DNA of 59,239 nt, counting the filler, from Jimgerdemannia flammicorona (Eukaryota): assembly GCA_003990765.1 (NCBI GenBank). It is 2 parts of 2 records of this genome, joined end to end, with 100 filler letters (N's around TTAATTAATTAA, not from the genome) between each part and the next. Parts side by side here need not be neighbours in the genome. Positions count along the whole stretch, not along the records: positions 29,675 to 59,239 come from RBNJ01000485.1; 1 more part is not named here. One strand, given 5' to 3'. The stretch's first letter is position 1. The number at the start of each line of letters is the position of its first letter. Position numbers and translations under genes: made by a program. Of the stretch, positions 16,246 through 46,706 are shown piece after piece. The notes beneath the pieces are model-generated. The model did no database searches. It saw only the letters and a list, made by a program, of their open reading frames with translations, and was not told the origin of the DNA.

Positions 16246-18279
16246 ATGGTGACCAACAAGCTTCCTGAGGTACATACTGGGCAGGGTGGCCCTGGAGTAT
16301 TTGATTGACAGCAAGTAGGGAGAGGCCCTGGCTTGGGGGGAAGTATGAGGGGCCTGCTGGTAGGAGGCCATGGTGGAGGAGGGGGTGGAGCTGGCGGTCA
16401 AGAGTCTGGCAGAGTGAGCTTTGTGGAGAAGGTGAAGGGGGGTCAGCAGGGAGCTGGACTGGAGAGCTGACTGAGGGGGGGAAAGATGCTGGTGAGGGCT
16501 ACCAGGCAGCAACCTCTTGAGAGTACTTCTCTGGAGGGCCATAGGGGTAGAGCTGGGGAGATAGTGGCTGGGGTGGGGACTGCTGATAGGGGTGTGATGG
16601 GCGATCTGAAAAAAAATCTAGATGGGACTGCTGATGGTGAGCCAAGCGGTGAGAAGGGCATGAGGCCTGGGGACCTGGCAGATGATATAACAGGACTGGT
16701 GGTAACTCCATTACTCAAGAAGTCAATCTTGGAATTTGCAGTCACAATATGTTTCCAGGACTTGGCAGTGATGGCAAGAATGGTTCTGGGGCTGATTGCA
16801 AAACAGATGAGTGGGGTAGCATTGATTAAGTTCCTGAAGGGCCTAGAAGGGGTGGAGGTGGGATTTGAGGAGGCTGGGCCACTAGAGGAGGCTTTGAAGG
16901 CTGGGATGAAAGTGGGTGAAGTATGCGTACTGATGGTGAGATGCCTGCAGTGGGACCCAAGAGTAGTGCAACTTCTGGTAAAAGGAGTTCCCACTGTTAT
17001 GGCTGTAGAGATGAGGAAGAGGGTCAAGGAGATTATAGTGGAGTATGGGGAGGTAGTTGATATTGGGTTCAGAGTGTGGGAAGGAACCTCCCTCCGGACA
17101 GGAGATGTTGATGTCAGGATTCAGCTAGCTGGGCGAGAGGCTACTGGGAAGGCTTGGGACTGGCCCTCAGTGATGATGTGGGGGGCTATCTTGTGCAAGG
17201 TGATGAGAGTCAAGGGGAGTGAGGAGGAGGAGGAGGATTTGCTGGAGGTGCTGGAGGAGTTGAGTGGGGCAATTGAGAGGAGGACGAAAGCATGGAAAGT
17301 ATTTGAGGCAGCGACGCATCTTGAGGTGGTTGGAGGAAAGTGAGTCCACATCAACAAGGAGGTGTGGGAGAGGTCCCAAGGGCTTAGAAGTCAGAGGGAA
17401 TTGTTGGCAAAAATGGGGGCAGAGGCAACAAGGAAGGTGGACAATAGTGTGACTACTGGAGGCGCTGGGGCAAGTGTCTGGGCTGCTGGTGGTGGAAGGA
17501 ATGAGGAGGGGGAGCAGGTGGAGGACATAAAGGTGCCAAGCAAGAATCCATATGAAGATGGCACACTGGAGGTTTGGGAGGAAATCTGGGCAGATTCACC
17601 TTCACCCTCCCCCCTTATCAGAAGGAGTCTGGCAGTAAGAGGTAGGGTGGTGGAGGATGTGCCAATGCACAGTGCTCAGCAGGTGTGCTTTGGAGTCCCA
17701 AATGTAGAGAAAGGGAGATTGGTAGAGGTGACTGGAGAAGAGGAATTGGTGGATATTCTGGAGAAGAGATGAAATGAGTCAGCCAGTGTGAGGGCTGATA
17801 CTACGATATTGGATGGAGGGAGGCTGGTGACTCCAGGAGGGAAGGAGGTGGAAAACTTACTCTGGGTATACCAGATGATAAACAACTTGGCAGCAGAAGA
17901 GCTAGGGGAAGTCGACCTTCAAGTGATGAGCGATGAGCATTGGACAAGGATCCTGCAGAGTGATGGAGTAGAGACAGCATTGAAGGCAGAGATTCTGGCA
18001 GTATACCTGGAGGAGGAGGGGTATGAGGTAGATAAGGAGAGGGAGGCTGTGCTGGCAATTGTGGTAGATGAGCGGGCTGCCCACTGTTGGACTAAGAGGC
18101 ATGGGTTGCAGCTCTGGCAGGAGGCTTGTTTGGAGTACCACAAGGAGTTTGAGAAAAAGGAGGATGGGGAGATGGCTGAAATCCTGGCTGAATTGGAGGC
18201 TAAGAGGATCAAGGAAGCTGAAGCTACTGCTGAGTACAACCTAGACAGGGCACAGGAGGAAGTGGACATGGAGCAGTAG
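16246..18279 (+). pseudogene. LINE copy 1 ORF1 (677 codons in one frame, interrupted by nonsense codons)
   Basis: ORF-track pieces at 16486, 17362 and 17788 are all in frame with ATG 16246. Gly-rich N-terminus, SFVEKVK motif, no evident CCHC knuckle. Collinear with copy 2. Confidence 0.8.
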
Positions 18280-18310
18280 ACAGCATATCTGAAACTATAT
18301 AATCTCTCTT

Positions 18311-21300
18311 ATGAATAGTACAACCAATATTTTTTCTTTAAATGTGAATGGGCTATGGGGCACTTATCGATGTAAGAACATTTTTACTTGGCTAAAGAGA
18401 TTGGAGGTGGATCTCTTCCTCTTGCAGGATGTCAGGTGTGAGGATGACTTGGATAGATTGGAATGGATGAAGGAGTGGGGAGGTGAGGCAGTTTGGAAGG
18501 GCAAGGTTGGAATTCTGGTGCAGAAGGGCAGAGGGGAGATATAGGATGTGCAGAGCTGGGGGGATAGATTGGTCTGGGGAGAGTGGACACATGCAGGTTG
18601 GGAGCCAGTCATGGTGGGCTCCTATTACTGCTCTGTGGTACGGGGTGAGCAGGTGACCTGGGTGATGGGCCTACAGGAGAGTGGGATTCTTGTGGAGGTT
18701 GGGGTAGATGTGCTGGGTGGGGACTTCAATATGGTCTGAGACATATTGAGGGATAGAACTGATGGAGGATGAGATACTGTGGGGCAGAGTGGAGGACTGG
18801 CAATATGGGAGGAAGTGGAATGACTTAGTGCTCTGGTGGATGTGGGTAGAGAATGTTGGGGGAATAGGAAGGTGTACACACACTGGGCCAGGGGCCTGGG
18901 GATAAGGATTGATTGGATTCTGATGACCAGCTGTTGGGGTCTAGATATTTGGAAGTCACTGGAGGTAGAATGGTGTCCTTGGTCAGATCATTGGGGGCTT
19001 TTGGGGCAAGGACATTTTGGGGGGAGTGGGGATGGGCCTGGACATTGGCATCTCAATTTCTCCCTATTAGATGATAAGATTCAGTAGGGTAGTTGAGCCG
19101 AAGTCATTCAAAGGCAGGTAGAGTGCTGGAGGCAGGAGGGTGTCACAGTCGATATTCAGTGGATGAGGATGAAGGAGATGGCCAGGGCCTTCTGGAGTGA
19201 GGCTGGCATGGAGGTGGGGAGACAGAGGAGGCAGTGGGTGCAGTGGGCATCTCATAGACTATTTAGACTCTTGGAGGACTGGGCAAGATTGGCGACATTG
19301 GGGGGAGAGGAGGACTGGCATTTGATAAGGTTACAAATGGAGGTGGCTGAACTACAACAGGTGCTGTAGAATGAGGAGAAGGCTAGGGTCCAGGGTCTGG
19401 CAGCATGGCTTCATTGGCAGGGGCTGGAGGAAGGAGAGCAGCTCTTGAAGTTTCTTACAAGGGCCCTTCAGGCGAGAAGAGTGCAGCAAAAGTGGGAGGG
19501 GTGCTTAATGCTGATGGTTCATTGGTACATGGGGTACAAGACATTCTTGGCTCGTTAAAGGAGCATTGGAGTAGATTATGGAGTGAGGAGGAGGGTGGGG
19601 CAGGTGCTGAGGACATTGAGCAAGCCTTGGAGGATTGGCACCCTACCCAAGCTGCTGGGTTGGATGACTTAGTACTGCCAGTACTAGAGGAGGAGATCCA
19701 CCAGGTTCTTGCCATGACAACCTTGGGTACGGTGCCTGGAGAGGATGGTCTGCCCTGGGACTTCTGGAAAAGGATGGTGGGAGTCCCTGAAATAGTAGGA
19801 GAGATGAGGGCACTGTGTGATTGGTTTCTACAGATGGGGAGATGGGTGGGAGAACAGGACCTAGGGTTGGTGACATTGCTTTATAAGAACAAAGGGAGCT
19901 GAGAGGACTGGAAGAACTGGAGGCCAATTGTGCTACTAGATATGGACAGAAAGTTGGTTACCAAAGTGGTGGTCGCAAGGTTGCAAAAGGTGGCCCAGCA
20001 AGTCTTGGGTGAGGAGCAGCGGGGCTTTGTTGGAGGCCGGCTCATCAGGGATGGTATGGCATGGATACATGGCATTATTGAAGGGACACGAGCCAGTGGA
20101 CTGAATGGGTGTCTGGTCTTTTTGGACCAGGAGAAAGCCTATGACCAAGTGTGATAGGTCTGGTTGGTGAAAGTTTTGGATAGGATTGGGGTCCTGCAAT
20201 AGTTCAGGACTGCCATGGTCAGTCTACTGGAAGGAAGTAGGGTGGCACTCATGTGTAATGGACATAGAGGGATAGCATTTCCCCTGGGTCGGGGGGTGCC
20301 CCAGGGGGACCCACTGTCCCCCATTTTGTATGCTTTGTCTCTTGAGCCCTTCATGGACAGAATAAGGCAGAAGATAGTGGGGCTCTCTATCTTTGGCATC
20401 AGGTGGAAAGTAGGGGCATTTGCAGATGACATGGTGGTTGGTCTGGGATCAGTTGCAGATGTTGAGGAGCTCAAAGAGACAGTGGAGTGGTATGAGGCAA
20501 ACTCTGGGGCTAGGCTTAATTGACATAAGTGCGAAACAATGGTGTTAGGCAATGGTCTAGTGGGCAGGGAGATTATTGGAATGATTGTCCCTGCTGGTGA
20601 GGCAGTACAGTACTTGGGTATCTATCTGTCAGTATATGGGTTGGTTCTGCCCAGACTTTGGTGGGAGCAGTGGGTTGGCATATGGGAGGAGGCTCTGAGG
20701 TATTGAGGGGGCCATCAATTGTCTCTGGCAGGCTGCATTTTGATTCTGAACATCTATTGGCTGCCAAAGGTGTGATATCTGGCTTATCATCTGGACTTCC
20801 CAGCTTGGGTGGTGAAGCGATTGATAAAGCTGGCCAAGGGGTGGATCTGGGCTGGAAGGCAGAGTCAGATCAACTGGGAGGTATTGTTCTTACCAGTGGC
20901 AAGTGGGGGACTTGGGCTGGTCGACTTTCCTAAGAGGCTGCACTGCTTGAGAGCTTGGTGGCTGAAGAGAGCAGTGGAGTTGAGAGGGGGTGGTTGGGTT
21001 CCCCTACTGCAGAAAGTATGGGAGATGAGGTCCTCCCTGAGAGGTTTGACAGGTGATCTCCTGGCACTTATGGGTCTTCAGAACTCTGGGCAATTATAGT
21101 ACAAAGGCTTCTGGTGGGGAGTGGTGGAGGGAGCATGCCGCATTGAGATTAGGTGGCAGGGAAATGAAGGAGAGGAGGCTTGGGACTGGGCAATATAGAG
21201 ATGGGACCGAGTGTTACTAGGTGATATTCCCTTGAGTTTGACATTGGTGATGGGATCGAATGCCAATGGGGACTGGGCCAGGATCTGTGGCCTAGTAGTT

Positions 21301-22020
21301 GGCAGGGTGTGGGAATCGGTGAGGAGTGGGACTGGCATAGCATATGGGCCTGGAGTGCCAAGGTGAGGAGGTGGTTACTGCTGAAGTACTGAGTGGTCTG
21401 GTGGTGTGTGCTGAGGCGAAATGTCATGCTTAACTTCTGCTCTGGTCACCTTATCAAGGGGGGCTGCTTTGACTGTGAAGAGTGTTTTAATGTAGAGTAG
21501 GAAGGGGGATATGTACAGATGCCTGAACATTGGCTAGGGGAGTGTAAGGTGCTGAGTTCCTTTTGGCAGAATATTGGGGATCATCTAGGAGTGGTGCGCA
21601 GGAGAGCTGATGTGTGGGGGCGATGGGAAGACTTAAGGGGTAGACTGGAGGAGGGGGTGGAGAAGGAATGGCTGACATTAGGGTGGGTTTTGGCCATTTG
21701 GGTGGGGCTGGCCAGTCACTGGCTATTTGTATTTGAAGATGGGAGGAAACTTGGCTCTGAGGTCAGGCTGATGAGGTGGCATAGCCTTCTGGAAGACACC
21801 TTGACAGGCTGGTGGCTGGGCTGGGGGTTGAAAGAGGGTTGAAGACATTATTTGGTAGAATGAATTTGTAGGCAGAGTGGGGGGAGGGTTGGGGTTGTGG
21901 GTGCGAAAGTGGTTTTTATTGGTGTGAATAAGTGGAGTAGTACTTCTATGGGGATCAGGTAGTGGGAGGGTAAACTGTAAAATTATTAATAGATGGTAAT
22001 AAATGGCAGAGTCCAAGTGA
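18311..22020 (+). pseudogene. LINE copy 1 ORF2: AP endonuclease - reverse transcriptase - Cys/His finger
   Basis: APE motifs SLNVNGL, LGGDFN, RIDWIL, SDH. RT motifs PGEDGLP, NWRPI, LDQEKAYD, GVPQGDPLSP, FADD, YLGI. C-terminal CEEC..PEHWLGEC. Confidence 0.92.
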
Positions 22021-22021
22021 C

Positions 22022-22054
<33 letters not shown>

Positions 22055-22066
22055 ATCATCTGTCTC

Positions 22067-23002
22067 ATATACTGAGTAAGGAGTTGGTAGACAAAGGAGG
22101 GGTACATTATCTTCACTTTCATCAGATTCACTGTCTGTATACCTTCTGTAGATTACAGTGCTATGAGTTGCAGAGTTATAGTATACTGGCAACTGTACTT
22201 GATATTGCTCATACTTGGGTAGTAAAGTCATGGTTTAATCTTGAGAGTTATCTAGATATATAGATTGTGTTCTCTAGTCTCTTTATTGTAGTTGAAGTAG
22301 TCAGACATAAATGTGAGTTTGTACTTATGCCAGTGGTCATTATCTCAATAGGTCTCATAAGTAGTTATGAACTATTGTAAGTTTATTGATAAGGTTGGTG
22401 GGATGATCAGAGCTGACAGAGATCTTTGGCTTGAGGTCATATATATTAGCATCAGAGGGATCATTATCTTTTGCTTTGTTATCATCAAACTAAATTATAT
22501 TATAGATATTCTTTATGGCATATCAAACTTGGGGTATTTGTAGAATATAGTTATTAGAGTGTAAGAAGATTCTGTCTGTAGTTTGAATATACTCAATATA
22601 CTTGTGATTGAGTTCTTATTCTATATCTTTGATTTGGTCATAGGACAGGGTAGCAACCATTTCAGTGGTAGTAACTTAGAGGTGAGAAATAAAAGAGCTG
22701 TACTTATAGAAGAGTTCTCAATATTTATATGCAATGAGTTTCTAGTGTTGAGATGTCTGGGTAATGTCTGTATTATGGTAGTGTTTGATCATATCTTCTA
22801 GAAGATGACTGATCTGGTAGTAGTTTGAGATTTGTCTGATTTAATAGGCTTCACTAAGCATGTTCAGGACATTTCATCGGGCTTCCATAAAGTAAAGAGA
22901 TATCAGACTATGGATATTTATGAGGGATAGAGGAGGGGTGATCCAATTAATAATGGCATTCTAAATATCAGCACAGATACAGTTATAGATCTCAGTGGTC
23001 AT
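22067..23002 (-). pseudogene. Decayed ORF, candidate remote homologue of the LTR-encoded accessory protein; interrupted by LINE copy 1
   Basis: Conceptual translation MTTEIYNCICADI*NAI...ISNYYQISHLL...KLIAYKY*ELFYKYSSFISHL*VTTTEMVATLSYDQIKDIE*EL aligns by eye with RMFQDIRRAM...WQEYEIGNLL...RTAKKIHQIFRHAPWSIPNLEYVRVSDFRDLSSCRINALEARV. Confidence 0.45.
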
Positions 23003-23884
23003 GGTTATATATATTGTTTAAGAGTTATAGTTATTTGTTTTGTTTGTTCTGGTTCTTCATTTTGATATATCTGAGTACTCAGTATATATGCATTCAGTTC
23101 TGATTGATAAGATTCCATTTATATAAATCTTGGATTCTATAACTTTGAGTTGACTCAGCTTTGTATTCTGTGACTTTGGTTTGACTCAGCTTCATGATTC
23201 TATATGTGATTTCTGGATTTATTTAGAGATGATATGTAATTTTGGTGGCTTAGAGGTTTTTATTATTATTATTATTAAACATGTGGATAATAGTGAAAAG
23301 GGTTATATCAAGATGAGATGCTGATACAGCAGATATAAAAGTCAGCAGTATATATCAAGCAGTAGAGAGTTAAAAGCTTATGTGAATTTTCACAATGGAG
23401 CAAAGCAGGGAATAAAGTATTTTCTGAAGCAAGGTGCAATTGATCTGCAACCTGCTCATGATACCATAATATGTAATGATCTTTATTCAAATTTAAAAAC
23501 AAGGTTTGGTTATGAGAAATATGGATCTAACCTCAGAATTCTGGAATTAGAATAGTGCATAAGTACTTAGAATATTATCCAATCTAAACAAAAGTCTGAA
23601 TCAGACATTATTGATCTATATATGTGATGAGCCATTAAAAATCCAATATAGAAATTATTGGGAAAAGGTACTTATCATGTGAGCAACAAAGTGTTACATA
23701 TATATAAATAATACCAAAAACTGAACTAGACTAATAATGGTCATGTGTAAGTATGTAATTGTCACTTATAGGTTTAAAACTCTAAAAATTATCAGTATCT
23801 GAAGGTATAGGCATCAGGCCTAAAGCCTTATGACTGGAGTGGAGTAGAGTCTTGATACTAAAGCAAGAAGTAAGCAGAGGTAGA

Positions 23885-26800
23885 CAGTACCTTTCTCCTG
23901 TATAATTCACATTACACAAAACTTCAAGCAATGGTTTTCGACACAACTTGGAGAAAAGGTATTATAAGAATGTCATCGAGCAAGAGTTCTGATGGGTGTG
24001 CTGGGTCGGGTGGACCTGGGGCTTTTGGCTGGCAGAAGGTGGGGAGAGGTTATGGACTGGGGATGGGGGCTTTTGGAGGATCGAAGGTGGGAGAAGGCTC
24101 TGGTGGGGGACTGGTGTCTGGTGGATCTGGAGGAAGGTCTGGTCCCTCCAGCTTTGCTGACAAGGTGAAGGCAGGTGGATGGCCTACTGAGACAAGGGCT
24201 GGTACTGCTGAGGGGAAGGGCAAGGCTAGTGTCAGGAGGGGGAGTGGCCCTCAGGGGGGAGCAGTGAGTGTAGGGGCTGGTAGTGCTGTGGCTGGGGGTA
24301 TGACTGTTGATGGGAGTGTGATGGGGGATCAGGAAAAAAAAAGAGATGTGATGGCTGATGGTAGAGTGGGGCAGGAGTTCCCGATGCAGAAGGGGGACCT
24401 GGCTGATGGTGTAATGGGGCTGGTGGTGGGCCATTACTCAAGAAATCGATCTCAGAGTTTGCAGTGACACTGTGCTTCCGAGGCTTAGGAATGATGGTGA
24501 GGATGGTCTTGGGGCTTATCTTGAAGCAGGTGGCTGGAGTGGCTTCGGTGAAATTCCTGAAGGGTCTGGAGGGGGTTGAGGTGGGCTTTGAGGAGGCAGG
24601 CCCACTGGAAGAGATGCTGAGGGCTGGAGTGGAAGTTGGGGAGGTGGTGGTCCCTATGGTATACTGTTTGAGGTGGGACCACAGGGTGGTGCAGCTGCTG
24701 GTAAAGGGGGTGCCCACAGTGATGAAGGAGGAGATGAGGAGGAGGGTAGAGGAGGTGATGGTGGAGTATGGGGATGTGGTGGATATTGGCTTCTAGGTGT
24801 GGGAGGGGATGATGATTAGGATAGGTGATGTTGATGTCAGAATTTGGCTGGCAGGGAGGGAGGCCACAGGGAAGGCAGGTGACTGGCCCTCAGTATTGAT
24901 GTGGGGGGCCTTTATTTGTAAGGTGTTGAGGGTGAAGGGGAGTGAGGAGGAGGAGGAGGATTTGTTGGAAGCATTAGAGGAGATGAGTGGTGCAGTGGAA
25001 TGGCGGGCAAAGGCCTGGAAGCTCTATGAGGAGTCGACACACCTGGAGATTGTAGAGGGGAAGTGTATCCACACTGACAAGAGGCAGTGGGAGTGGGCTC
25101 AGGGGCGCTTGAGGCAGAGGGAGCTCTTGGTGAGTATGACAGGAGGGGAGAAGAGGAAGGTAGATGGGGCTGAGGGGTCTGGAGGCATCAAAGCCAGTGT
25201 ATGGGCTAGCGGAGGTGGAAAGGAGGTGGTGGTGACAGAAGAATGGGCTGCGAAGGTACTGGGCAAGGATCTCTATGCAGACAGTACTTTCGAGGTCTGG
25301 GAGGAGAAATCAGATAGCACCCCCCCCCCCACTTATCAGGAGGGGCCTGGTGGGGTGGAGAGGGGTAGCAGAAGATGTACCGATATAGGGGGCCCAGCAA
25401 GTTACCTTTGGGGTCCCCGATGTGGTGAAAGGGAGCCAGGTGGTGGTGGTTGGTGAGGATGAGCTAGTGGATGTAGAGGAGGAGTGGAATGAGGATGTCA
25501 GTATAGGTGCTGATACTATGATGCTGGATGCAGGGCAGCCGAGGACCCCTGGAGGGAAGGAGATTGGGAATCTGCTGTGGATGAGCAAGGTAATGGATAA
25601 CCTTGCAGCTGAGGTATTAGGGGAAGTGAATCTGAGGGTCATGCCAGAGGAGCACTGAACATAGATTCTGCAAGGTGATAGAGTGGTAGAGGTGCTGAAG
25701 ATAGAGATTCTTACTATATTACTAGAAGAAGAGGGTTATGAGGTGGATGAGGTGAGGAAGGCAGAGCTAGTGGTTATTGCTGGTGAGTGGGCTGCCTACT
25801 GTTGGGCAGAATGTCATAGTTTGCAGTTCTGGCAGGAGGCCTGTGGGGAGTATCAGAAGGACTTTGAGGAGAAAGAGAATGGGGCAATAGTTGAACTTCT
25901 GGAGGGATTGGAGGCATAGGGAGCTGAGAAGAAGGAACTGGCTGTGGAATATATCTTGGATTTGACACAGGAGGACTTGAGTGCAGACTTGTAGAGGAGA
26001 GGTTTAATCTTTAACAATATTCCTCATGAACAGTACAACAAACATTTTCTCTCTCAATGTGAATGGCCTTTGAGGATCTGGGCAGTATAAGAACATTTTT
26101 ACATGGCTAAAGGGATTGGAGGCTAATCTCTTTTTACTGCAGGATATATGGTATAAGGATGAGGATGATCAGATAGAATGGACTAGGGAATGGGGTGGGG
26201 CTACCACTTGGTTTGGAAAGGTGGCAATTCTGGTAAAGAAGGGTAGAGGAGATTTGGAGGGAATCTGAAGCTGGGGAGATTGCTTGGTCTGGGGTGAATG
26301 GCATCAGCCAGGGTGGGAATCAGTGTGGGTGGGCTCTTGTTACTGCCCAGTGGCTAGGGGAGAGAGAATTGTGTAGATTAAGGAGCTACTGGAGGAGGGC
26401 GTTCTCTTGGAGAAAGGGGTTGATGTTCTTGGTGGTGATTTTAATATAGTTCAAGATTTGCAGCTAGATAGGACTGATGGAGGGAGGAATGCAGGTGGGA
26501 GGAGTGGCGGTCTAGATGTATGGGAGGAGGTGGAAAACCTTAGCTCCTTAGGGGATATGGGCCGAATATGGTGGGGCGACACTAGGGTCTACACACACTG
26601 GGTGAATGGCTTAGGGATAAGAATTGACTGGATTCTGACAGCTGAATGTTGGGATGCTGATGTCTGGAAGACTTTGGAGGTGGTGTGGTGCCTGTGGTCT
26701 GATCACTGGAGACTGTTTGGACAGAGGCAGTTTGGGGGGAGTGGAGATGGATCCAGACATTGGCATCTTAACTCCTCCCTGCTGGCTGAGAAGGGGTTGT

Positions 26801-29574
26801 GGGATTCATGGGTAGAGGATGTCCAGGCAAAGATTCCACTTTGGAGGCAGGAGGGTTTGTCTACAGGTGTCCGGTGGATGAGATTGAAGGAGGCTGTGAG
26901 GGTTTATTGGGGTAGAGCTGGTAGAGAGGCAGAGAGATGGAGGAGGAGGTGAATATAGTGTACTTCAAATAGACTGAGGAGATTGCAGTTGGAGTGGGTG
27001 GATTTGCTTACATCTGATAAGATGGAGGATTGGAGATTAGAGAGGGCGAAATTGGAAGTTGTAGAACTACAACAGGTGTTGAGAGAGGAGGAGGAGACTC
27101 ATATGCGAGGAATGGCAGCCAGGCTAAGATGGCAGGGGCTTGAGGAGGGGGAGTGGCCTACTAGGTACTTGTCTAGGCTCCTCAAAGCCAGGTGGGTGAG
27201 ACATTGGTGGGATGAGATCTTAGATGCTGAGGGAGAGTTGGTGCATGGTATGCAGCAGATCCTGGGAGTATTGAAGGAGAATTGGTGAGGTCTGTAGAGT
27301 GAGAAAGAAGGGGGTGATGATGCTGAGGTGATTGGTGACACACTGGAGGAGTGGGAGCTGCCACAGGTAGAGGGGCTGGGTGACTTGATCTTACCAGTCC
27401 AGGAGGAGGAGATCCAAGGAGTCCTGGTAGTGACTAAGCTTGGGACAGCACCAGGAGAGGATGGGTTACCATGGGACTTCTGGAAGAAGATGGTAGAAGT
27501 CCCGGGGATGCTGGGAGAGATGGTGGCCCTCTGTGACTATGTTCTTCTAAATGGTATGTGGGTTGGAGAGCAGGACTTAGGACTGGTGGCCCTATTGTAC
27601 AAAGACAAGAGCCAGTATGAGGATTGCAAGAACTGGAGACCAATCATGCTTCTAGATATGGATCAGAAGTTGGTGACTAAGGTGATTGTTGTAAGGCTAC
27701 AGAAGGTTGCTCAACAGGTGCTGGGTGAGGAGCAGTGGGGCTTTGTAGGAGGTAGACTTATCAGAGATGGAACTGCCTGAGTACATGGTATTATTAAAGG
27801 AGCCCGGACCTGCAGACTGGATGGTAGACTGGTTTTTTTGGACCAGGAGAAGGCCTATGACCATGTTTGGCAGGTTTGGCTGGGCAAGGTATTGGACAGA
27901 ATTGGCATTCTACCACAGTTTTGGGCCTCTATGTTGAGTTTGTTGGAAGAGAGTAGAGCAGCGCTGATGTGTAATGGTTACAGGGGTTTGGTATTCCCCT
28001 TGGGGAGAGGAGTCCCTCAAGGGGACCCGCTGTCCCCTATCCTTTATGTGCTCTCCTTGGAACCTTTGATGGACAGGATCTGTAAGAGGGTGACTGGGCT
28101 CTCTGTATATGATGTAGAGTGGAAGGTGGGGGCCTTTGCAGATGATATGGTAGTTGGACTTGGATCAGTAGTGGATGTAGAGGCTCTTTGGGAAACCATG
28201 GAGTGGTATGAGGCACACTCTGGAGCAAAGCTCAACTGGCATAAGTGTGAGACGATGGTGCTACGGAATGGACTAGTGGGAGGGGATGTCATTGGAACAA
28301 TTGTCCCCACAGGAGAGGTGGTGCAGTATCTAGGTATCTTCCTCTCTGTATATGGATCAGTCCAACCATAGATATGATGGGAGAGGAGGGTGGACATTTG
28401 GGGGGAGGCTCTAAAAGGTTGGGGGGGTTGTCACATCTCCCTGACAGGGCGGGTGGTGATTCTGAATGTATACTGGTTCCCCAAGCTGTGGTATGTGGCA
28501 TATCACTTAGACTTTCTTGCTTGGGTGGTAAAGAGGTTGATGAAACTGGCTAGGGATTGGATTTGGGCAGGTAGAAGGGCTCAGATCAGTTGGGATACCC
28601 TTGTCAAGCCAGTGCTTAGGGGAGGCCTGGGTCTTGTTGACTTCCCTAAGCATCTACACTGCCTGCAAGCTTGGTGGTTGAGAAGGACTGTTGATCTACA
28701 GGGTGGAGATTGGGTACTGTTGATGAAGAAGGTGTGGGAGATGAGAGTCTCCCCCTGGGGGTCCTCAGGGGATCTACTCTCTTTGGTGGGTCTGAATAGA
28801 AGCCAACAGCTATGGTATAAGGGCTTCTAGTGAGGAGTGGTCAATGAGGCACACCAGATAGGCTTGTGCTGGCGTGGTAATGAGGGGGAGGTGGTATGGG
28901 GTCCAGCTATGTAGAGATAGGACTATCTGCTTCTAGGGGGAGTTCCACTTGCTGAGTTTGACATTGGAGATGGAGTGGAGTGTCAGTGGTGAATTGGCCA
29001 GGATCTTTGGCCAAATAGTTGACAGGTGGTGAGAATTAGTGAGGAATGGGACTGGGTAGGGATCTGGTCTTGGAGTACAGAGGTGCGGCAGTGGCTTCCT
29101 CCCAAGTTCAGAGTAGTGTGGTGGCAAATGTTGTGGAGGAATGTTATGTTGAACTTCCATGCTGGACATCTAGTAGATGGTGGTCAGCTGGATTGTGAGG
29201 AGTGTTATAATGTTGGACAAGTTGGGGGATTTGTACAAATGCCAGAACATTGGCTGGAGGAGTGTGAGGTGCTGGAGGACTTTTGGATAGCTGTGGGGGA
29301 CCAGCTTGGGGTTGAAAGGTGATCAGATGGAGAGAGATGTTGCTGGGAAGATCTGGAATCTAGACTTGTAGGAGGTGTCGGCAATAGATGGCTTACTGTA
29401 GGGTGGGTTGTGGCAGTGTGGGTGGGGTTGGCTAGACATTGGCTCTTTGTTTTTGAGGAGGGGTGACAGATAGGAATACAGGAGAAGTTGTTGAGATGGG
29501 AGGAGTTGGTGGGCAGATGGGGATGGTGTTTGATAAAGTGGTCTTTCATCGAGAAGGGGTAGGGGGAGAGGCTG
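23885..29574 (+). mobile_element. L1/Tx1-type LINE (copy 2, diverged subfamily); ORF1 23970-25994, ORF2 from 26026, cut by the gap
   Basis: The 5' UTR is homologous to copy 1 (CCTTTCTC..ATTCA..TTACACAA..TGGAGA.AAG). It has the same APE, RT and Zn motifs (LGGDFN, SDH, GVPQGDPLSP, FADD, CEEC..PEHWLEEC), with many stops. Confidence 0.93.
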
Positions 29575-29674
29575 NNNNNNNNNNNNNNNNNNNNNNNNNN
29601 NNNNNNNNNNNNNNNNNNTTAATTAATTAANNNNNNNNNNNNNNNNNNNNNNNNNNNNNNNNNNNNNNNNNNNN
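29575..29674. other. Artificial contig linker / gap (N44-TTAATTAATTAA-N44)
   Basis: Exactly 100 bp, symmetric, with a central all-frame stop palindrome. Confidence 0.95.
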
Positions 29675-29869
29675 TTCTTTATAAGCCACCAGATCAGAGT
29701 ACAAGAAGATCATACAGCATGCGAGATGAGCAATGATGACCAACTGTGAGTCATTGTGACCACAGCACAAGCATCCTGAAGAATATAAAAGAAGGATCAA
29801 GGAACCACAGTAGCAGCAGCCAACAAGAACCCCAATTCCAAAATAGCTCAAAGACTTACCATAAACAAA

Positions 29870-30688
29870 ATGCCTGCTGCCCGCCAAACCTCAAGGTCAA
29901 GGAATCATCAAGGTATCTCGGTCGAGGAAAGGATGTTTCAAGACATCAGAAGAGCCATGGAGACCCGCTCAAGAAGGACTCCTAGTGTCCACCTAGGTAC
30001 TGCAGACCCCTATCACTTCATCCTCTACTGCCATGAAATGGAAACAAGGATCACCATCACCACCGAATGCCTCCAAATGTGGCAGGAGTACGAAATAGGA
30101 AACCTCCTCTGCTGGGAGTTCCCACAGGCCAGCACCCAAGAGCTACAAGATGCCACTCCCATGGATATACGTGAAACAAGGACAGCTAAGAAGATCCATC
30201 AGATCTTCAGGCATGCACCATGGTCGATTCCCAACCTGGAGTATGTTAGAGTCTCAGACTTCAGAGACCTGTCATCTTGCCGCATCAATGCACTAGAAGC
30301 CAGGGTGGCTACAGAAGCCCGGTCCACTATTACCCTCAACAGCGAAGAAGTAGAAGACTTCTGGCACCCTATCCTTCAGGACAACCCAGACCAGTTCCTG
30401 CAAGGGTTGATCTCAGTATTCCAAGGCCCAAGCATCCAGGTCAGACCTCCCCAGGACCCCACATTTGTCCCTTACTTTGTGGAAGAGAACCTCATAGACT
30501 GGAGAGCTCCAGATCTTGTCCCCGATTTCCCCACCAAACGTGATGATGTCATTGGCGATGACGTCATCCTGCACGATATATCCGAAGTATGTGAGACGTG
30601 CGACCTGCATGACGAATTCGCAGATCTCATCTCCTTCAGTGATGATGATGATGATGAAGCCCCCATGGTCCTGAACTTTCTGCTCTAA
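29870..30688 (+). CDS. LTR(U3)-encoded hypothetical accessory protein, 272 aa, acidic C-terminus
   Basis: Uninterrupted ORF with an AAAATG start context. The same ORF, with stops or deletions, is present in three other LTR copies, and a diverged homologue lies at 51120-52272. Confidence 0.8.
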   Translation: MPAARQTSRSRNHQGISVEERMFQDIRRAMETRSRRTPSVHLGTADPYHFILYCHEMETRITITTECLQMWQEYEIGNLLCWEFPQASTQELQDATPMDIRETRTAKKIHQIFRHAPWSIPNLEYVRVSDFRDLSSCRINALEARVATEARSTITLNSEEVEDFWHPILQDNPDQFLQGLISVFQGPSIQVRPPQDPTFVPYFVEENLIDWRAPDLVPDFPTKRDDVIGDDVILHDISEVCETCDLHDEFADLISFSDDDDDEAPMVLNFLL

Positions 30689-30710
30689 AGTTCTTTGTTA
30701 CACTGAATAA

Positions 30711-30929
30711 TGCCAGCACTGGTATTCTCATATAATACTGGATAATGCCAGCACCGGTATTTTGAAGTGACGTGAAATTGTTCCAGCACCGGTATTTGAT
30801 GTGGTACTAAATAATACCAGCCCTAGAACTCAGTAGTTTTAGTTATTGGAATTTATATTTAGCTTTATATCTTAGCAACCATTGAATTATATTTTGTATA
30901 AATACCTCTCTTATTTCCTCTGAAATAAA
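30711..30929 (+). promoter_or_regulatory. LTR U3 motif array, TATA box and poly(A) signal
   Basis: CCAGCAC(C/T)GGTATT x3 (30713, 30748, 30783), TATAAATA at 30897-30904, AATAAA at 30924-30929. Confidence 0.6.
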
Positions 30930-31489
30930 GTCAGTTCTATCCGGTTCACTTACACACTTCCTTGCAAGCAATCTAAGAGATAACAAGACAGTTAAAGATA
31001 AGACGTTTGAGGACTATAAGACCTTGGGAAGGCACTCCAATAAGAACTTGCTTATAACAAACTTGAGTTAGTCTAAGAGATATACCTTGAAGAGAATCTG
31101 GCGTATTTGAAGAATTCAGCGACCACTACGTGACACTATATATAGATATATCTAGTATACTATATTTAGTCATAGTCTTTAAATATATATAAATACTCTC
31201 TATACTAAGTGTGTTATAACCTCAGCTCTACTTTCCTAATATATAAGAATAAAAAGTAGTATTGTTATTATATAACTCTCAGATCTGATTTGTTAATAAT
31301 TCTGAGCTTAATCAACTTGGAATATAAGCAGGGTACTCTACCAGTACAAAAACCTGAAAGCAATATCTAAACTCTACTATGAAAGACAACTAGAACTCAG
31401 TACTTTCTCAAGAACTTAGAACTTAGGACTAATATTTACTATTGATTATCTGTAATATATTAATGCTATTAGTATATAGTTTTATTATA

Positions 31490-37692: not shown

Positions 37693-40020
37693 ATGTCTAA
37701 AGATCAAGAAGTATATTTAAGAGAAATCTCAGAACCATCAGATGATATATTGGAGGATATATTGGAGGATATATCAGATATCTCCACCAGTTCATTATCA
37801 CCAATGAGCATGAGAATAAAAATAAAAACAAAACCTGGTAATAGCTGGGTGTGAAATCTGCCACAAAGGTAGTTTTATACATTGTGCTAATAGTTGAATT
37901 CATAGGAGTGATTGGTCTCATTAGTTGTAAGGGTGAGTGGTCAGTTGTAAGTGGTTGAGGTTCTAATATAGTCTCATATCTCTCTATTCAAATAGAATTT
38001 AAAAAGTAAGCTCATCAGTTGCAACCATTACATGACTTAGAGCTATATATCAAAGGATGGCAATATCAACAATCTTAAACAACATCTCTGGAAGCATCAT
38101 AATGCCATGCTCTTACCTCTCCAGCATGCTGAGAATCCTCGCTGGTCTAAGAAAGATATTGTAAGTATAGATAGAATGGAATTTGTGAAGTACTTAGGAG
38201 GTTATTAGAAAAATAATTGATCAAATTTTATTATTACAAATAGGAACACACTAGCAAGACTTTAAGTAATGAAAATTTCTGTCAGTTAATTGCCAACTTC
38301 ATTGTCACTGGATATCAGCCATTCTCCACTATCGAAAATGCTGGCTTCAAGTATCTCCTTCACATATTACACCCTGATCTGGCCCTTCCATCGGCTGATA
38401 TGATTTCATGAGTTATTTGAAAGGAATTTGAACTATTGTGGACTCAAGTGAAAGCAAGGCTAGCAGGGCTTAAGTCAAAGGTGTCACTTATACTTGATTG
38501 TTGGATATTGGATGTTAACATCAAGGCCTTCCTTGAAATAACAGCCTATTGGATTGACAGTGATTGGAAGATACATGACATTATCTTAGACTTTGTCAAT
38601 ATCAGTGAAATAACATATATGGGTGCCAATCTTGTGAAAAGTCTGGAGCTGATAATAGATAATTTATTGCCTAGTGACAATCAAATCATTGCTGTTGTGT
38701 GTGACAATGCCAGTAACAACAATACTCTGTTTGAGAATCTCCATCATTTGCTTGCTCATATATGCTGTTTAGGGCATGTGTTGAATCTCATTGTTAATGA
38801 TGCTCTTGGTTCTCTTAGCAAGCCCATTGGAAAGCTATGGAAGTTGATAAAGAAGATCAAAAATTCAGCACAATGACAAGCACAACTGGCAAAGGTCTGT
38901 GAATCCTCCAGAATTCCCATTTTGAAGCCTCTCTTAGATGTTACAATGAGATGGAGTTCTATATATGAAATGTTAGTGCATGCTCTGGAGATTCATAAGG
39001 TAAGATTTTGAATCTATTTGTGAAGTATTTTGGTACTAAATAAATTGATATTATATTCAAATAGAGCTTGGATATATTGTGTGCCATGGATAAGCAAATG
39101 AGCCATATATCTGAAGATACATGGCAACAATTTGAATTGATTTGCCAATTTCTCGAGCCTTTTGCCAAAGTGACAACTGTGATGTCAACTTCGAAGTATC
39201 CTACAATAGTGGCTGTTATCCCACTATTTAATCAGCTATGTGATCACCTTGAAGATGTCATCAATACATATCAAACTAGTGAACATTTTAATCAGGTATA
39301 TATATGATTTTGAAAGTAATTTTATTTGTGAATTTAGGAACTAATTTAGTAAGTAATTGGGAGGTAATATGTGTATATTCTTATTTTTTATAGATAATGC
39401 TTACCACTGTTGAGAATGTACATATGAAACTTCTAAAGTATTACTGCAAGATGACACCATTACACAGTATAGCTTTGGCCTTAGATCCATGTATCAATAT
39501 GCATTATTTCTATCATGAGCAATGGAAAAAATCCTTAATTGATGAATGGAAGAATCAGATGGAACATATCTGGAAAAAGGAGTATAAGCCTGTTAATGCT
39601 ATCATTATATCCTCAATATCTCATGATGCTGATGATTTTATCAACTCAATATATGAGAAGAAACAGCATGTTGATGTGGATGATGAGCTTGAATGGTGGG
39701 TGTTGTTTTCATGTTTTTTTGGTTGGTTTGGTTAATTTTCACTCATATTTCTCTGTTTCAGTTATTTGTCAGAGAATCCAGCTGATCCTCATATAGATAT
39801 ACTGGATTGGTGGTGGCGAAATCAGTTGATATATCCTAATCTTTCATGAATGGCTTACGATTATCATGCTATTTCAGTGACATCTGTTCCATCTGAATAT
39901 ATTTTTTCTATTGCTGGTGAGCTAGTGACTGAACATTGAAACAGCTTGTGTATAAATACAATTTGTGCATGTATGTGTTTGGATTCTTGGTGGTCTTCAG
40001 ATATTTTTCACTTTCAATTG
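37693..40020 (+). pseudogene. hAT transposase, intron-containing, with nonsense mutations
   Basis: BED finger (WCEICHK..KQHLWKHH), LDCW, VCDNASNN, HICCLGHVLNL (CxxH), TMRWSS (cf. TRWNS), ALDP, LDWW..YPNL, and the hATC dimerisation motif SVPSEYIFS. Confidence 0.9.
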
Positions 40021-41183: not shown

Positions 41184-41629
41184 TAGTGCTCCCAATAAAT
41201 CGAATAGAATCAAATTGGACCCAAATTCAATTTGATTCGAAAACTTCAAATCGAATTGAGGTCCAATTTGATTTGAATCAATTTGAATTGAGGTCCAATT
41301 CGATTTGAGGTCTGATTCAAACTCCATTTTAGAAATTACATACCTCGACGAATACATATCCAAATTTAATGTTCTTTAGCTTGTAAGATTTCCCATATAT
41401 AGGGGAATCTAACAAGCTAAAGATCATTGAATTTAGACATGTATTCGTCGAGATATTACATTTCTAAAAATAGGTTTTGAATCAGACCCTCAATTCGATT
41501 CAAATTTGATCAATTTGAATTCGATTCCATTTGAACTCAATTCGAATTGAAAAATCCCCAATTCAATTCGATTTGAATGACCCTCAATTCAATTTGATTC
41601 AAATTGATTCAATTCATTTGGGAGCACTA
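41184..41629. mobile_element. hAT-type MITE (446 bp), largely palindromic
   Basis: 12-bp perfect TIR TAGTGCTCCCAA, 8-bp TSD CTA(C/T)TGTA, TTCGAATT/TTCAATT subterminal motifs and a central ~170-bp inverted repeat. Confidence 0.9.
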
Positions 41630-42718: not shown

Positions 42719-42752
<34 letters not shown>

Positions 42753-43684
42753 CTTTTTATAGTCACTTGGACTTCCCTTTATTACTGCCATCTATAATAA
42801 TAATAATACAATGTCACCCCATCCCCTCAACTGATATCCCTCAGATCTACTCCTCTCCCCTCTATGCTCCCCTGCCAGAGGACAACCCAGTTGCCCACCA
42901 CCCAAATCCTCCTGCCACTTTTCCGGGAGATACACTGTACCAAACCCTTTTGACTCCCCCCACCTGGCCCCCACCCTCACCACCAGCCATTCAGAATATC
43001 CAGTAATAACCATTCCCAACATACCACCTTATCCCCAACCCCAACTTGCTGGCCCTCCTCAAATACATGTACCCAATGTCCAGCCATCTCAACCCATATA
43101 GCCAGAGCCCAACCGAGGGTCAGCCATTCATCTCCAACCCCTCTGACCAGCCTTCAGCAGAGCTCTTCCCATCTCCCCCCTTCCCCTTCCTCCAGGGCTC
43201 GTAGCTCTAACCAGTCTGCGATACGCCACCAAAACACCTCCAAAATGTCACACTCACTAAGCCAATGTTCAGGCATTTGTAACACTCTCTCTTCCTGTCC
43301 AACATTGAAACATTCCTCACACTCAAACATGCCACCAGCCACCAAGTGCCCAGACTGATAGTTCAACATCACATTCTGCTATAGAACCTGCCACCATACC
43401 ACCCAGAACTTGGGGAGTAGCCACCACATCACCTGCTTGCTCCAAAGCCAGAGACCATTCCAGTCCCACTCCTTGCCAATCCCAACCCTCTGCCAGGCTT
43501 CAGGCCAAAGGTCTCCACCTAAGCCCCACAAACACTCCATTCTATCACCAAGCTGGAAGTCCTCCACCAAAACACTGCCCAGCAGTAGCCTGTCTCATTG
43601 CCACATCCACAGTCCCCAATCCTCCTCTCCTTCATCACCTCACCACCGAAGTCCAATTTTCTTAGCACTATCCACCACCCCCCA
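42719..43684 (-). mobile_element. 5'-truncated LINE (copy 3)
   Basis: Poly(T) from 42719, the same 3' motif GTCCAAGTGACTAT as copy 1, and ORF2 C-terminus ECEECFNV..MPEHWLSEC. Confidence 0.92.
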
Positions 43685-44109
43685 CTTCTTGGTGATTGCA
43701 TTGAGCTTCCTGTAGTCAATGCAGAGTCTTGGGGCAAACTCTCCAGACTTACTTCCTTTCTTTGGGGCAAGGACAATGGGTGAAGCCCAGGGGCTGATAG
43801 CTTGCTTGATGATTCCAGCTTCTTCCATTTTCTTGAGTTCTGCTCACAGCCATTCTCTGTAGGCAGGTGGTATAGGTCTGGCTTTCTGGTAGATGGGCTT
43901 GGTATCACCAGTGTCAACTTTATAGTAGTACTTGGGTTCTTGATTGTGGATATCCCTGAAGTCTGTAGCAAGTACTCCTTCATTCTGGTACAGGATCTTG
44001 AGAAGTTGTTCTTCCAGGGAGAAGTTTTCTCCAATGGTATATGTGTGCTTGTTCTGGTCCTTGTCTTTCTTATGCTCAAGTTCAGTGATCTTGGTGACAG
44101 CATAGGCTC

Positions 44110-44500
44110 CTATTCTAGTAGATCCAAAGCCTTGTTCTCCTCTCTTGGTCTTGATGAGTTTGATGGCTTCAGTGATCTTGGGCTTCTTGATTTTGTAGAT
44201 CAGCATCTGGCCAATCCTGTCATACTTCTTGATTTCGAATGGGGTGGTGAGGTTGTGATTCCTAACTATGAGAAAGATCTCACCAGTGTAATCAGGGTCA
44301 ATTACTCCTCCTTTAACTGAGATTTCACTTTTGGCCAGACTGCTCCTGGTCTTGATAATTCTGGTATAGTTCTCTGGCAGCTTGACTCCAATTCCAGTGC
44401 CAAGTAGGGTGGTGGTCTGTGGTTCAAGGGTAGCATCTTGAATACTGGCAAGGTCTATTTCTATGGCTCCTTCAGTCTTGTATTCTGGGATCTTGGCTTT
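44110..44500 (-). pseudogene. dUTPase domain in Gypsy element A pol
   Basis: All five dUTPase motif regions are recognisable (DL, RSS, GVIDPDYTG, DRIGQ, RGEQGFGST). Confidence 0.9.
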
Positions 44501-46688: not shown

Positions 46689-46706
46689 ACCAGCCAATGG
46701 GCACCA
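46689..46706 (-). promoter_or_regulatory. Primer-binding site
   Basis: TGGTGCCCATTGGCTGG lies 3 nt inside the LTR end. The same site occurs at 59060-59074. The tRNA identity is not assigned. Confidence 0.8.

Follow-up and report, generated by a model that had tools for sequence, protein, structure and literature searches.

An ORF of 272 aa, encoding the protein P0001, lies in an LTR of a Ty3/Gypsy retrotransposon of Jimgerdemannia flammicorona (assembly GCA_003990765.1). The window is the whole stretch of DNA that was analysed, 59,239 nt with filler included, in which two parts of two records are joined end to end; positions 29,675 to 59,239 come from RBNJ01000485.1, and all positions given are those of the window. 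Coordinates of the ORF, of the LTR copies and of the retroelement features are collected in Table 1.

Table 1. Features of the LTR-resident ORF and its carrier elements in the window.
Feature	Position	Strand	Remarks
Linker N44-TTAATTAATTAA-N44	29575-29674	.	directly before LTR copy c; cuts off its upstream context
LTR copy c	29676-31135	+	ORF intact; least decayed, 28 CpG kept; ends GTGACA; first ~47 nt missing
TATA box 1, TATAAAAG	29784-29791	+	86 nt 5′ of ATG; identical in A, S and L001; proposed promoter of the LTR gene
ORF (P0001), 272 aa	29870-30688	+	ATG to TAA; wholly inside LTR copy c, sense orientation
CCAGCAC-containing unit, three copies	30700-30800 (30713, 30748, 30783)	+	35-nt spacing; between stop codon and TATA box 2
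TATA box 2, TATAAATA	30897-30904	+	kept in all four LTR copies and L001; proposed promoter of genomic RNA
AATAAA	30924-30929	+	only one in the LTR; 27 nt after TATA box 2 (26 nt in L001)
Element A, internal region	43685-46709	-	gag with CCHC knuckle, protease DTGA, dUTPase, start of RT
PBS of element A	46690-46706	-	starts TGG; 2-3 nt past the end of LTR A; followed by gag
LTR A, 5′ LTR of element A	46710-48268	-	ORF region present, broken by stops and indels; CpG o/e 0.07
LTR S, solo LTR	52880-54428	-	TTAT on both sides; ORF broken by 11-nt deletion and stops
LTR T, truncated 3′ LTR of element B	54786-55665	-	LTR positions ~632 to end; last 137 ORF codons open
Element B, internal region	55692-59077	-	gag, dUTPase, RT YVDD, RNase H, integrase zinc finger
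LTR B, last ~160 nt of 5′ LTR of element B	59078-59239	-	cut by the window end; PBS follows

The LTR is approximately 1507 nt in length, starts with TGTAAT and ends with GTGACA. These TG...CA borders are identical across independent insertions; the decayed copy A starts with TATAAT, and some ends are decayed variants of GTGACA. Outside the LTR ends, the flanking sequences of copies A, S, T and c show no relation to one another. An earlier reading made from the sequence only had drawn the borders from the solo LTR and the PBS-adjacent LTR, and they are now fixed by the 5′ LTR of element A, the solo LTR S and the truncated 3′ LTR T. The TG start and the 4-bp target-site duplication reported for the solo LTR were also found (TGTAAT, with TTAT on each side), where four bases in AT-rich DNA provide modest support; neither a PBS nor a purine tract adjoins this copy. 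LTR T sits behind an integrase remnant of element B, lacks the first ~630 nt through a deletion, and is 94.5% identical over 163 nt to the 5′ LTR of element B. The linker stands immediately before copy c; thus the first ~47 nt of this copy and its upstream context are absent, and a solo LTR cannot be told from a 3′ LTR. As a structural observation, in contigs of sequencing run X3, one of three runs of uncertain molecule type (two of them possibly RNA), the LTR end at position 31135 continues into the PBS sequence; no run among the listed matches is recorded as RNA.

By its domain content the carrier is a dUTPase-bearing Ty3/Gypsy LTR retrotransposon with gag, PR, dUTPase, RT, RNase H and IN. 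On the minus strand the pol order is protease (DTGA), dUTPase (PF00692, 4e-26), RT (YVDD), an RNase H motif and Integrase_H2C2 (2e-12). Elements A and B have the PBS sequence in common (in B it follows LTR B, from 59074 downward), and in both it is followed by gag with a CCHC knuckle; no tRNA genes were found within the window. The internal region of element A is interrupted by a LINE-like fragment near 43551-43685. Element B lacks 1.2 kb that is present in element A, and the deletion fuses its interior to the middle of its 3′ LTR. No env was detected in the element parts preserved in the window, nor does the window preserve an intact pol, purine tract and 3′ LTR junction, since the deletion that brings LTR T up against integrase has taken away the end of pol and any purine tract, and the sequence upstream of copy c is lost.

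Within the LTR, the ATG of the ORF is at ~242 nt and the stop codon at ~1060 nt. In element A the ORF region is part of the 5′ LTR and precedes the PBS, and it is also found inside the solo LTR, thus the ORF does not belong to the internal region, and an LTR that begins downstream of the ORF, raised in the sequence-only reading as a possible outcome, is contradicted. The position given there, wholly inside the LTR, in sense and upstream of a TATA box and AATAAA, is upheld, with the second TATAAA and the sole AATAAA both 3′ of the stop codon, and the copy with the intact ORF is indeed the least mutated one. Four copies were also claimed, and four exist; however copy c alone is intact, A and S are full length but broken, and T carries the last part of the frame only. 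Of the three copies covering the ORF from end to end, one is thus intact.

That a single intact copy is present in the window, and that it adjoins a linker, are the points in favor of an open frame that arose by chance in a single young LTR copy, or of misdrawn LTR borders. This is very improbable, however. In 2000 shuffles of copy c the longest ATG-initiated ORF had a mean of 74 aa and a maximum of 188 aa, and none of the 2000 reached 272 aa; the LTR borders are set by three independent contexts; full-length ORFs of 271, 323, 325 and 342 aa are found in diverged lineages; and the selection signal described below is specific to the frame.

A diverged DNA homologue, L001, is present on a 1345-nt metagenome contig that has no LTR ends, so that the placement of its ORF in an LTR is presumptive. 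It carries an ORF of 323 aa with 62% identity to the window ORF. The two lineages align over the coding part and barely at all past the stop codon. Over 272 codons dN is 0.354, dS 2.13 and dN/dS 0.17, a ratio that is rough in its exact value, being from this one pair with dS saturated. By segment, dN/dS is 0.23 at codons 1-100 and 0.08 at codons 100-215, and in the first 215 codons differences at the three codon positions number 63/44/99. The ORF frame has a pN/pS of 0.33; four of the other frames give 1.08-1.39, and one, which is antisense, gives 0.57. The ORF frame is also the only one that is free of stops in both the window sequence and L001. This signature recurs among the decayed window copies. 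Compared with A, S and T, copy c has an in-frame pN/pS of 0.31, 0.31 and 0.28 and off-frame values of 0.80-1.56, with differences per codon position of 44/26/69, 47/23/71 and 22/12/40; transversions between window copies show no clear excess at third positions (8/5/9, 12/5/7, 10/3/5). A dN/dS near 1, which would have spoken against the gene in the sequence-only reading, is therefore contradicted. These comparisons show that purifying selection has maintained the open frame in at least two LTR lineages, between which synonymous sites have reached saturation, and the ORF is very probably a real gene inside the LTR.

Database comparisons show P0001 to be a member of a small orphan protein family. 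Relatives number 6 by single-sequence search and 13 by profile, and the family amounts to 5 clusters among 1.84 billion representatives. The N-terminus is MPA or MPP in 8 of 19 aligned members, at identities as low as 26-28%. All relatives are repeat-like fragments on short contigs, several of them truncated or frame-shifted; one member, P0020, is encoded on a contig of 4848 nt. When the DNA of relatives was sought, a metagenome scan gave one locus out of 380 pattern matches, and none was found among 332 in viral_contigs or 49 in genome_contigs. The absence of a recognisable domain, noted earlier from the sequence, is borne out: Pfam gave no family for P0001, and a PDB sequence-profile search returned no match at E up to 10. 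No similarity to the element's own gag was detected (best E 0.61); thus a match to gag, env or a known family, which the sequence-only reading had named as a counter-indication, was not found in Pfam, in the PDB profile search or in the element's gag. The fold search on a predicted model that it had proposed gave no Foldseek match (best E 0.63 in PDB and 0.22 in BFVD), and VIA-align against 48,161 chains gave a best Z of 4.3, with none at 5 or above and no DNA-binding fold recognised. The ESM Atlas gave a best score of 0.84 to unnamed clusters with a few Basidiomycota records, which is a lead only; together with a TPR_10 ORF, these neighbours hint at a fungal host. ATG5_HBR, the sole Pfam family seen (E 0.088 in 2 of 12 members tested), was taken as noise.

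A family with no known domain could have come from elsewhere, and LTR retrotransposons can acquire foreign sequence; a captured host gene or gene fragment should therefore be considered, which the LTR would carry as a passenger and whose constraint would be a remnant of selection on the host copy, not imposed by the element. This appears improbable, though less so than a chance frame. Of 917 candidates with lengths of 477-2000 aa, none was a significant relative in a longer, fused or otherwise different form, which is weak evidence, and the relatives have the repeat-like, fragmentary character described above. In addition, the coding signature lies between two lineages that share the same layout of TATA, TATA and AATAAA motifs, which argues that the gene diverged while in an LTR context.

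That layout, common to copy c and L001, consists of TATAAA, ~65-86 nt, the ATG-initiated ORF, a second TATAAA, 26-27 nt, and the sole AATAAA. Copy c has exactly two TATAAA motifs and one AATAAA (at 29784, 30897 and 30924), and the corresponding positions in L001 are 4, 1218 and 1244. The sequence GAATATAAAAG, 65-86 nt 5′ of the ATG, matches at 11 of 11 positions between the lineages within an otherwise diverged leader, and in neither sequence does an ATG intervene between TATA box 1 and the start of the ORF. The CCAGCAC-containing unit matches 22 times in the window, where 6.7 matches would be expected, with clusters at the equivalent place in LTRs A, S and T, and the 35-nt-spaced units look like enhancer repeats. 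It should be noted that motifs are the sole basis for both promoters, for the transcript ends and for the borders of U3, R and U5. An internal promoter, suggested in the sequence-only reading, is plausible given the perfectly conserved GAATATAAAAG upstream of the ATG in both lineages; whether the ORF has a promoter of its own is nevertheless an even call on this evidence.

The same motifs can be read in another manner, in which the gene is real but is situated in a very long R or leader region of ~1.1 kb and not in U3. Genomic RNA would then extend from after TATA box 1 to after AATAAA, and the ORF would be the first cistron of that RNA and also its 3′ end. The conservation of TATA box 1, which equals that of TATA box 2, and the position of the ORF start as the first ATG after TATA box 1 agree with such an arrangement, and an R region of ~2 kb has been predicted in rice Retrosat2, according to the accessible part of the source (PMC3485330). 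It is nonetheless unlikely: the making of genomic RNA would require a bypass of AATAAA in the 5′ LTR, and TATA box 2 looks functional, with the short fixed distance to AATAAA in both lineages and with repeats upstream.

A further alternative is a real U3 gene that has no promoter of its own and is expressed, as are sag and nef, from a spliced or 3′-coterminal RNA started in the 5′ LTR, with TATA box 1 conserved for some other reason. By the layout, any genomic RNA that finishes in the 3′ LTR would have the ORF at its 3′ end. However, four ATGs (29719-29736) precede the ORF start in read-through RNA, no splice signal was established, and the 11/11 conservation around the TATA motif within a diverged leader is left unexplained; this alternative appears slightly less likely than a long R.

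The best explanation overall, with a probability of about 0.55, is a genuine LTR-resident accessory gene, self-contained in U3 and proposed to encode a regulator. Each LTR would be a self-contained Pol II gene, in which TATA box 1 would start an mRNA of ~1.1 kb whose first ATG is the ORF start and whose end is at the single AATAAA. Genomic RNA would start ~27 nt after TATA box 2, at or just past AATAAA; the hexamer would thus be absent from the 5′ end of genomic RNA and used in the 3′ LTR only. With these borders the ORF would be in U3, R would be a few tens of nt and U5 ~185 nt, an arrangement like that of mouse mammary tumour virus, and both LTRs of an element, as well as every solo LTR, would bear an expressible copy of the gene.

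The most speculative step is that P0001 may be a nuclear regulator of the element's own expression. Residues 1-45 are basic (pI 11.9), followed by a predicted helical core (~18-185) that overlaps them in part and a short beta hairpin (200-212). The acidic tail mentioned in the sequence-only reading is confirmed as an acidic-hydrophobic, disordered segment at residues 191-272 with a pI of 4.05, which is a matter of composition and not evidence of activity. No membrane segment was detected (maximum 19-residue hydropathy 0.46). The fold model is of middling confidence, with a mean pLDDT of 59 and values below 35 in the tail; a first model made with 7 sequences (pLDDT 45.6) was set aside. The basic N-terminus, helical core, acidic-hydrophobic tail and lack of a membrane segment are more in keeping with a nuclear regulator than with a protein of the Sag or Env type. 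Recruitment of the transcription machinery would fall to the tail, and the 35-nt repeats that precede TATA box 2 may mediate it. A transactivator-like function, suggested by composition, is nonetheless doubtful, and chaperones and motifs that bind SUMO or Atg8 also feature acidic-hydrophobic tails. Inspection of the tail by eye shows SUMO-interaction-like DVIL and DLISF, and an Atg8-interaction-like F-x-x-L after acidic residues, which are too short to serve as evidence.

To our knowledge, apart from this case it is chiefly complex retroviruses, mouse mammary tumour virus (MMTV) among them, that have a gene wholly inside an LTR. The MMTV sag gene, the "LTR ORF", is a complete gene in U3 of an LTR of ~1.2-1.5 kb, upstream of TATA; because R is very short, each of the two LTRs contains the gene. 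The ORF described here is similar in that the LTR contains the whole gene, 5′ of the TATA box that would drive genomic RNA. Sag, however, is a superantigen, a membrane glycoprotein encoded by a mammalian retrovirus, and P0001 has no hydrophobic segment and no family or fold match; the likeness is one of position and not of membership in the Sag family. The carrier also differs, being a Ty3/Gypsy element with no env in its preserved parts. Lentiviral nef and foamy-virus tas/bet are 3′ accessory genes that overlap U3, and foamy viruses use a second, internal promoter and encode a transactivator whose activation region is acidic. These genes begin in the internal region and only overlap the LTR, whereas here the gene, its candidate promoter and the poly(A) signal are all within the LTR. 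No sequence or fold similarity between P0001 and 3′ accessory genes of complex retroviruses was found in the PDB profile and BFVD searches. The likeness to a Tas-like transactivator consists only of composition (the pI 11.9 N-terminus and the pI 4.05 tail) and of the repeats upstream of TATA box 2.

A literature search by title and abstract did not find an LTR retrotransposon with an ORF inside the LTR or U3; subscription journals and Repbase were outside its coverage, and an earlier description is possible. In the portions of the sources available, the matches for an ORF in an LTR mostly concern MMTV or its superantigen, and the existence of the MMTV LTR ORF is confirmed. A Blumeria preprint and papers on maize Fie2, on bdelloids and on giant transposons had, in their accessible parts, no bearing on LTR-resident genes.

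Additional ORFs (aORFs) of Ty3/Gypsy elements offer a second comparison. Plant aORFs, ORF0 of Retrosat2, brtn of Boty and CERV of Cer1 are, as is the gene here, lineage-specific orphan genes added to gag-pol whose role is mostly unassigned; brtn is reportedly an antisense gene. In the text available, Retrosat2 ORF0 lies upstream of gag-pol and was evaluated by Ka and Ks (PMC3485330), and CERV is required to export the genomic RNA of Cer1 (PMC10309623). The aORFs whose position can be read from the available portions of the sources are situated between the LTRs, whereas the ORF here is not in the internal region. An aORF review (PMC7264820) has no wording that puts an ORF in, within or inside the LTR. 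The backbone itself resembles fungal dUTPase-bearing Ty3/Gypsy elements (PosPlaTy3, Phanerochaete elements and Tuber Tmt1), with CCHC gag, PR, dUTPase, RT, RNase H and IN. In PosPlaTy3-5 of Postia placenta the dUTPase is between PR and RT, as given in the accessible part of PMC2864245. The same part describes no LTR-internal gene, in which the present elements differ, and a figure legend names an extra ORF without known function (PMC2864245). Gypsy elements that bear a dUTPase are described, in the source portions available, from fungi, rotifers and planarians.

An extension of the preferred reading, a self-contained U3 gene, is that the LTR is a complete gene whose orphan product acts in trans on LTRs of the family, as an activator or as an antagonist of silencing, and that solo LTRs serve as helper genes, a "public good"; this is possible but tentative. 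If it is true, non-retroviral LTR retrotransposons would here have their first protein gene housed in an LTR, and a "complex" regulatory layer resembling that of retroviruses would have evolved independently in a probably fungal Ty3/Gypsy lineage. U3 accessory genes, held to be typical of complex retroviruses, would thus have arisen in Ty3/Gypsy as well. The dose of the accessory-protein gene would follow the number of LTRs, solo LTRs counted, and not the number of intact elements, and recombination to a solo LTR would cease to silence the trans-acting functions of the family. With no known relative of the protein family, its function would be new biology, in retrotransposon expression, in silencing or in something unforeseen. 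LTRs are usually regarded as non-coding control regions and are masked by annotation pipelines, and orphan "hypothetical proteins" in metagenomes may be LTR-borne, which calls for caution.

As a minor observation in copy c, the motif TGAGTCA, seen by eye and too short to serve as evidence, is located at position 29749 and corresponds to a bZIP-site motif.

The open reading frame encoding P0001 lies wholly within a long terminal repeat (LTR), with its ATG ~242 nt and its stop codon ~1060 nt into the ~1507-nt repeat. The LTR copy that carries it (copy c) shows 76–78% identity to copies A, S and T, and 93.5% to the short B piece. On the sense strand the LTRs start with TGTAAT and end with GTGACA, and the DNA outside these ends is unlike between copies. 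A and B each continue identically with two or three bases, a TGG-starting primer binding site (PBS) and a gag gene with a CCHC knuckle; the LTR-to-PBS junction at position 31135 is also found in contigs of run X3. The ORF coordinates and LTR borders of the sequence-only reading are right. Its solo LTR is also borne out: S has TTAT on either flank, and no PBS or purine tract adjoins it.

Positions of the P0001 ORF, the LTR copies and the assembly linker in the window
Feature	Position	Strand	Remarks
ORF of P0001	29870-30688	+	ATG to TAA, 272 residues
LTR copy c	29676-31135	+	1460 nt, with ORF; recurs four more times, opposite strand
LTR A	46710-48268	-	repeat of copy c
LTR S	52880-54428	-	repeat of copy c
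LTR T	54786-55665	-	repeat of copy c, 3′ 880 nt only
LTR B	59078-59239	-	repeat of copy c, cut by window end
Assembly linker	29575-29674		N44, TTAATTAATTAA, N44; TTAATTAATTAA gives a stop in all six frames; artificial

The linker directly precedes copy c, whose first ~47 nt and upstream neighbour are lost; the flanks of the linker are not necessarily neighbours in the genome. T comes after an integrase zinc-finger remnant of element B, with unrelated AT-rich DNA beyond it, and displays 94.5% identity to the 5′ LTR of B across the available 163 nt. T is read as the 3′ LTR of element B, deletion-joined to pol. The window holds no preserved example of a pol/purine tract/3′ LTR junction.

In 2000 shuffled LTR sequences no ORF reached 272 aa (longest ORF mean 74, maximum 188), and a chance frame, or misdrawn LTR borders, is very improbable. 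The sole relative obtained as DNA is L001, a diverged homologue on a 1345-nt metagenome contig with a 323-aa ORF at 69-1040. Against this one homologue the window ORF gives a dN of 0.354 and a dS of 2.13 (ratio 0.17). Codons 1-100 taken separately yield 0.23 and codons 100-215 yield 0.08; the tail has diverged too far to be scored. Differences over codons 1-215 number 63/44/99 at codon positions 1/2/3. The ORF frame has a pN/pS of 0.33, compared with 0.57 for the antisense frame with which it has third positions in common and 1.08-1.39 for the four other frames; it alone is stop-free in both sequences. The ORF is a real gene.

The selection test called for in the sequence-only reading points the same way within the window. 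Comparisons of c with A, S and T give pN/pS values of the same sign as between lineages (0.31, 0.31 and 0.28 in frame; 0.80-1.56 off frame), with differences by codon position of 44/26/69, 47/23/71 and 22/12/40. However the codon-position pattern is not seen in transversions alone (8/5/9, 12/5/7 and 10/3/5), and thus the window copies by themselves are a weaker case for selection. Overall identity between copies is equal inside and outside the ORF (0.80-0.85); constraint is visible in the placement of changes, not in their number.

The ORF regions of A and S have stops and indels, while 137 codons are still open in T. CpG loss is the main mode of decay in these three copies: the 28 CpG of copy c read TG, CA or TA at 23/28 positions in A, 25/28 in S and 16/19 in T, and CpG observed/expected is 0.41 in c, 0.07 in A, 0.02 in S and 0.16 in T. 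This loss in the older LTR copies is a signature of methylation-linked deamination and not of a CpA-directed process. C>T plus G>A changes account for over half of the differences from copy c in A and in S, and for 43% of those in T.

TATAAA occurs exactly twice in copy c (29784 and 30897) and AATAAA once (30924), and the counts are the same in L001 (4 and 1218; 1244). The distance from the first TATA to the ATG is 86 nt in copy c and 65 nt in L001, and that from the second TATA to AATAAA is 27 and 26 nt, respectively. GAATATAAAAG is the same in the copy c and L001 lineages, with the surrounding leader diverged and showing indels. No ATG occurs from the first TATA to the ORF start; four are found upstream of this TATA. 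Three CCAGCAC-containing units, 35 nt apart, follow the stop codon in copy c, ahead of the second TATA; the motif is also clustered at that site in A, S and T, and the window has a total of 22 versus 6.7 expected. This motif layout, with its spacings, suggests a pair of transcription units that overlap. As a predicted promoter, the first TATA would give an LTR-contained mRNA of ~1.1 kb encoding the ORF, and the second would give the genomic RNA, with a predicted start at or just past AATAAA. The genomic RNA would then lack the hexamer at its 5′ end, and the hexamer would act in the 3′ LTR only. The putative borders that result place the ORF in U3, with a very short R and a U5 of ~185 nt, an arrangement like that of MMTV. 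A long R is a less likely possibility; in it the first TATA would mark the start of the genomic RNA. Expression of the ORF only from spliced or read-through RNA, with no promoter of its own, is somewhat less likely still. A TGAGTCA heptamer, which we take to be a bZIP/AP-1/Gcn4-type site but which is too short to count as evidence, is found at 29749-29755 (+), ~30 nt upstream of the first TATA; it is intact in LTR A and reads TGAATCA in S.

Relatives of P0001 are few: 6 among 5.8 billion proteins, raised to 13 by a profile search, and 5 among 1.84 billion cluster representatives. Every one is unnamed or "hypothetical" and is on a 0.5-4.8 kb contig. Four or more sub-lineages make up the family, and the most distant members are only 26-28% identical to P0001. 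Conserved blocks include HQIFRHxPW, WNPxLxDNPDQ, FxGPP and PYFVEENxIDWR, with PxxLNF near the C-terminus, and 8 of 19 aligned members start with MPA or MPP. An AlphaFold model from these 19 sequences (mean pLDDT 59, pTM 0.51) predicts a helical core at ~18-185 (blocks at pLDDT 70-94), then a small hairpin (200-212), while the tail is disordered. The sequence-only reading recognised no domain, and no family or fold match was detected by Pfam, a PDB sequence-profile search, Foldseek against PDB (best E 0.63), BFVD (best E 0.22) or VIA-align over 48,161 chains (best Z 4.3). P0001 is unrelated to the gag of the carrier element. A captured host gene, carried as a passenger in the LTR, is improbable: the searches gave no differently built relative, and the coding signature persists between lineages having a common LTR layout.

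P0001 has no membrane segment (maximum 19-residue hydropathy 0.46). It is basic over residues 1-45 (pI 11.9) and acidic over residues 191-272 (pI 4.05). Being soluble, basic at its head and acidic-hydrophobic at its tail, P0001 is a better fit to a nuclear regulator than to an Env- or Sag-like product. A transactivator-like role is a tentative possibility; RNA handling, silencing antagonism, and chaperone-like or adaptor functions are other candidates.

The nearest positional match is the MMTV LTR ORF (sag), the subject of most papers found on an ORF in an LTR; in MMTV the ORF lies in U3 and R is very short. However P0001 does not belong to the sag family, having neither a membrane anchor nor similarity. 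U3-resident accessory genes are already known; the P0001 gene would be one that is carried by a Ty3/Gypsy retrotransposon and encodes an orphan protein. Other additional ORFs of LTR retrotransposons include brtn of Boty, which is antisense, and CERV of Cer1; those with a described position are in the internal region, in contrast to the P0001 ORF. Retrosat2 ORF0 is described as upstream of gag-pol (PMC3485330), and a review of plant aORFs (PMC7264820) mentions no ORF inside an LTR. In literature whose coverage leaves out most subscription journals and Repbase, no report was found of an LTR retrotransposon whose LTR contains a protein gene, and thus priority cannot be firmly claimed.

The carrier is a Ty3/Gypsy element with the internal order gag, protease (DTGA), dUTPase (PF00692, 4e-26), RT (YVDD), RNase H and Integrase_H2C2 (2e-12). 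The placement of dUTPase between PR and RT is described for fungal elements (PMC2864245). About 1.2 kb of element A (44780-45973; protease and the CCHC-knuckle end of gag) is absent from element B at 58336-58347, and thus element B is an internally deleted, non-autonomous copy. At the separate deletion that joins pol to T, 55691-55695 (-), the integrase zinc finger and mid-3′ LTR frames are in phase with one stop codon between, probably a one-in-three coincidence.

Element A is truncated by a LINE-like fragment in reverse orientation (42731-43551), the third in the window. The other two are tandem copies at 16000-29574 (period ~7.72 kb, 67-74% identity), with a weak Exo_endo_phos match and RVT_1 at 2.8e-19. 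Strand composition there is extreme, with a G excess and C deficit (GC ~0.5, GC skew +0.25 to +0.53 over 13 kb). A 47% GC island at 6366-9480 (+) holds a pair of long open frames (509 and 587 aa) that overlap, neither with a Pfam match. A weak hAT-like fragment (DUF659, E 0.005; 38421-38873, +) and a TPR_10-containing frame (E 2e-6; 1565-2062, -) are consistent with a TE-rich, possibly fungal, genome. A ~330-nt repeat pair at 41248-41577 and 51244-51569 (72% identity), self-matching in reverse orientation too, may represent the ends of another, unclassified element.
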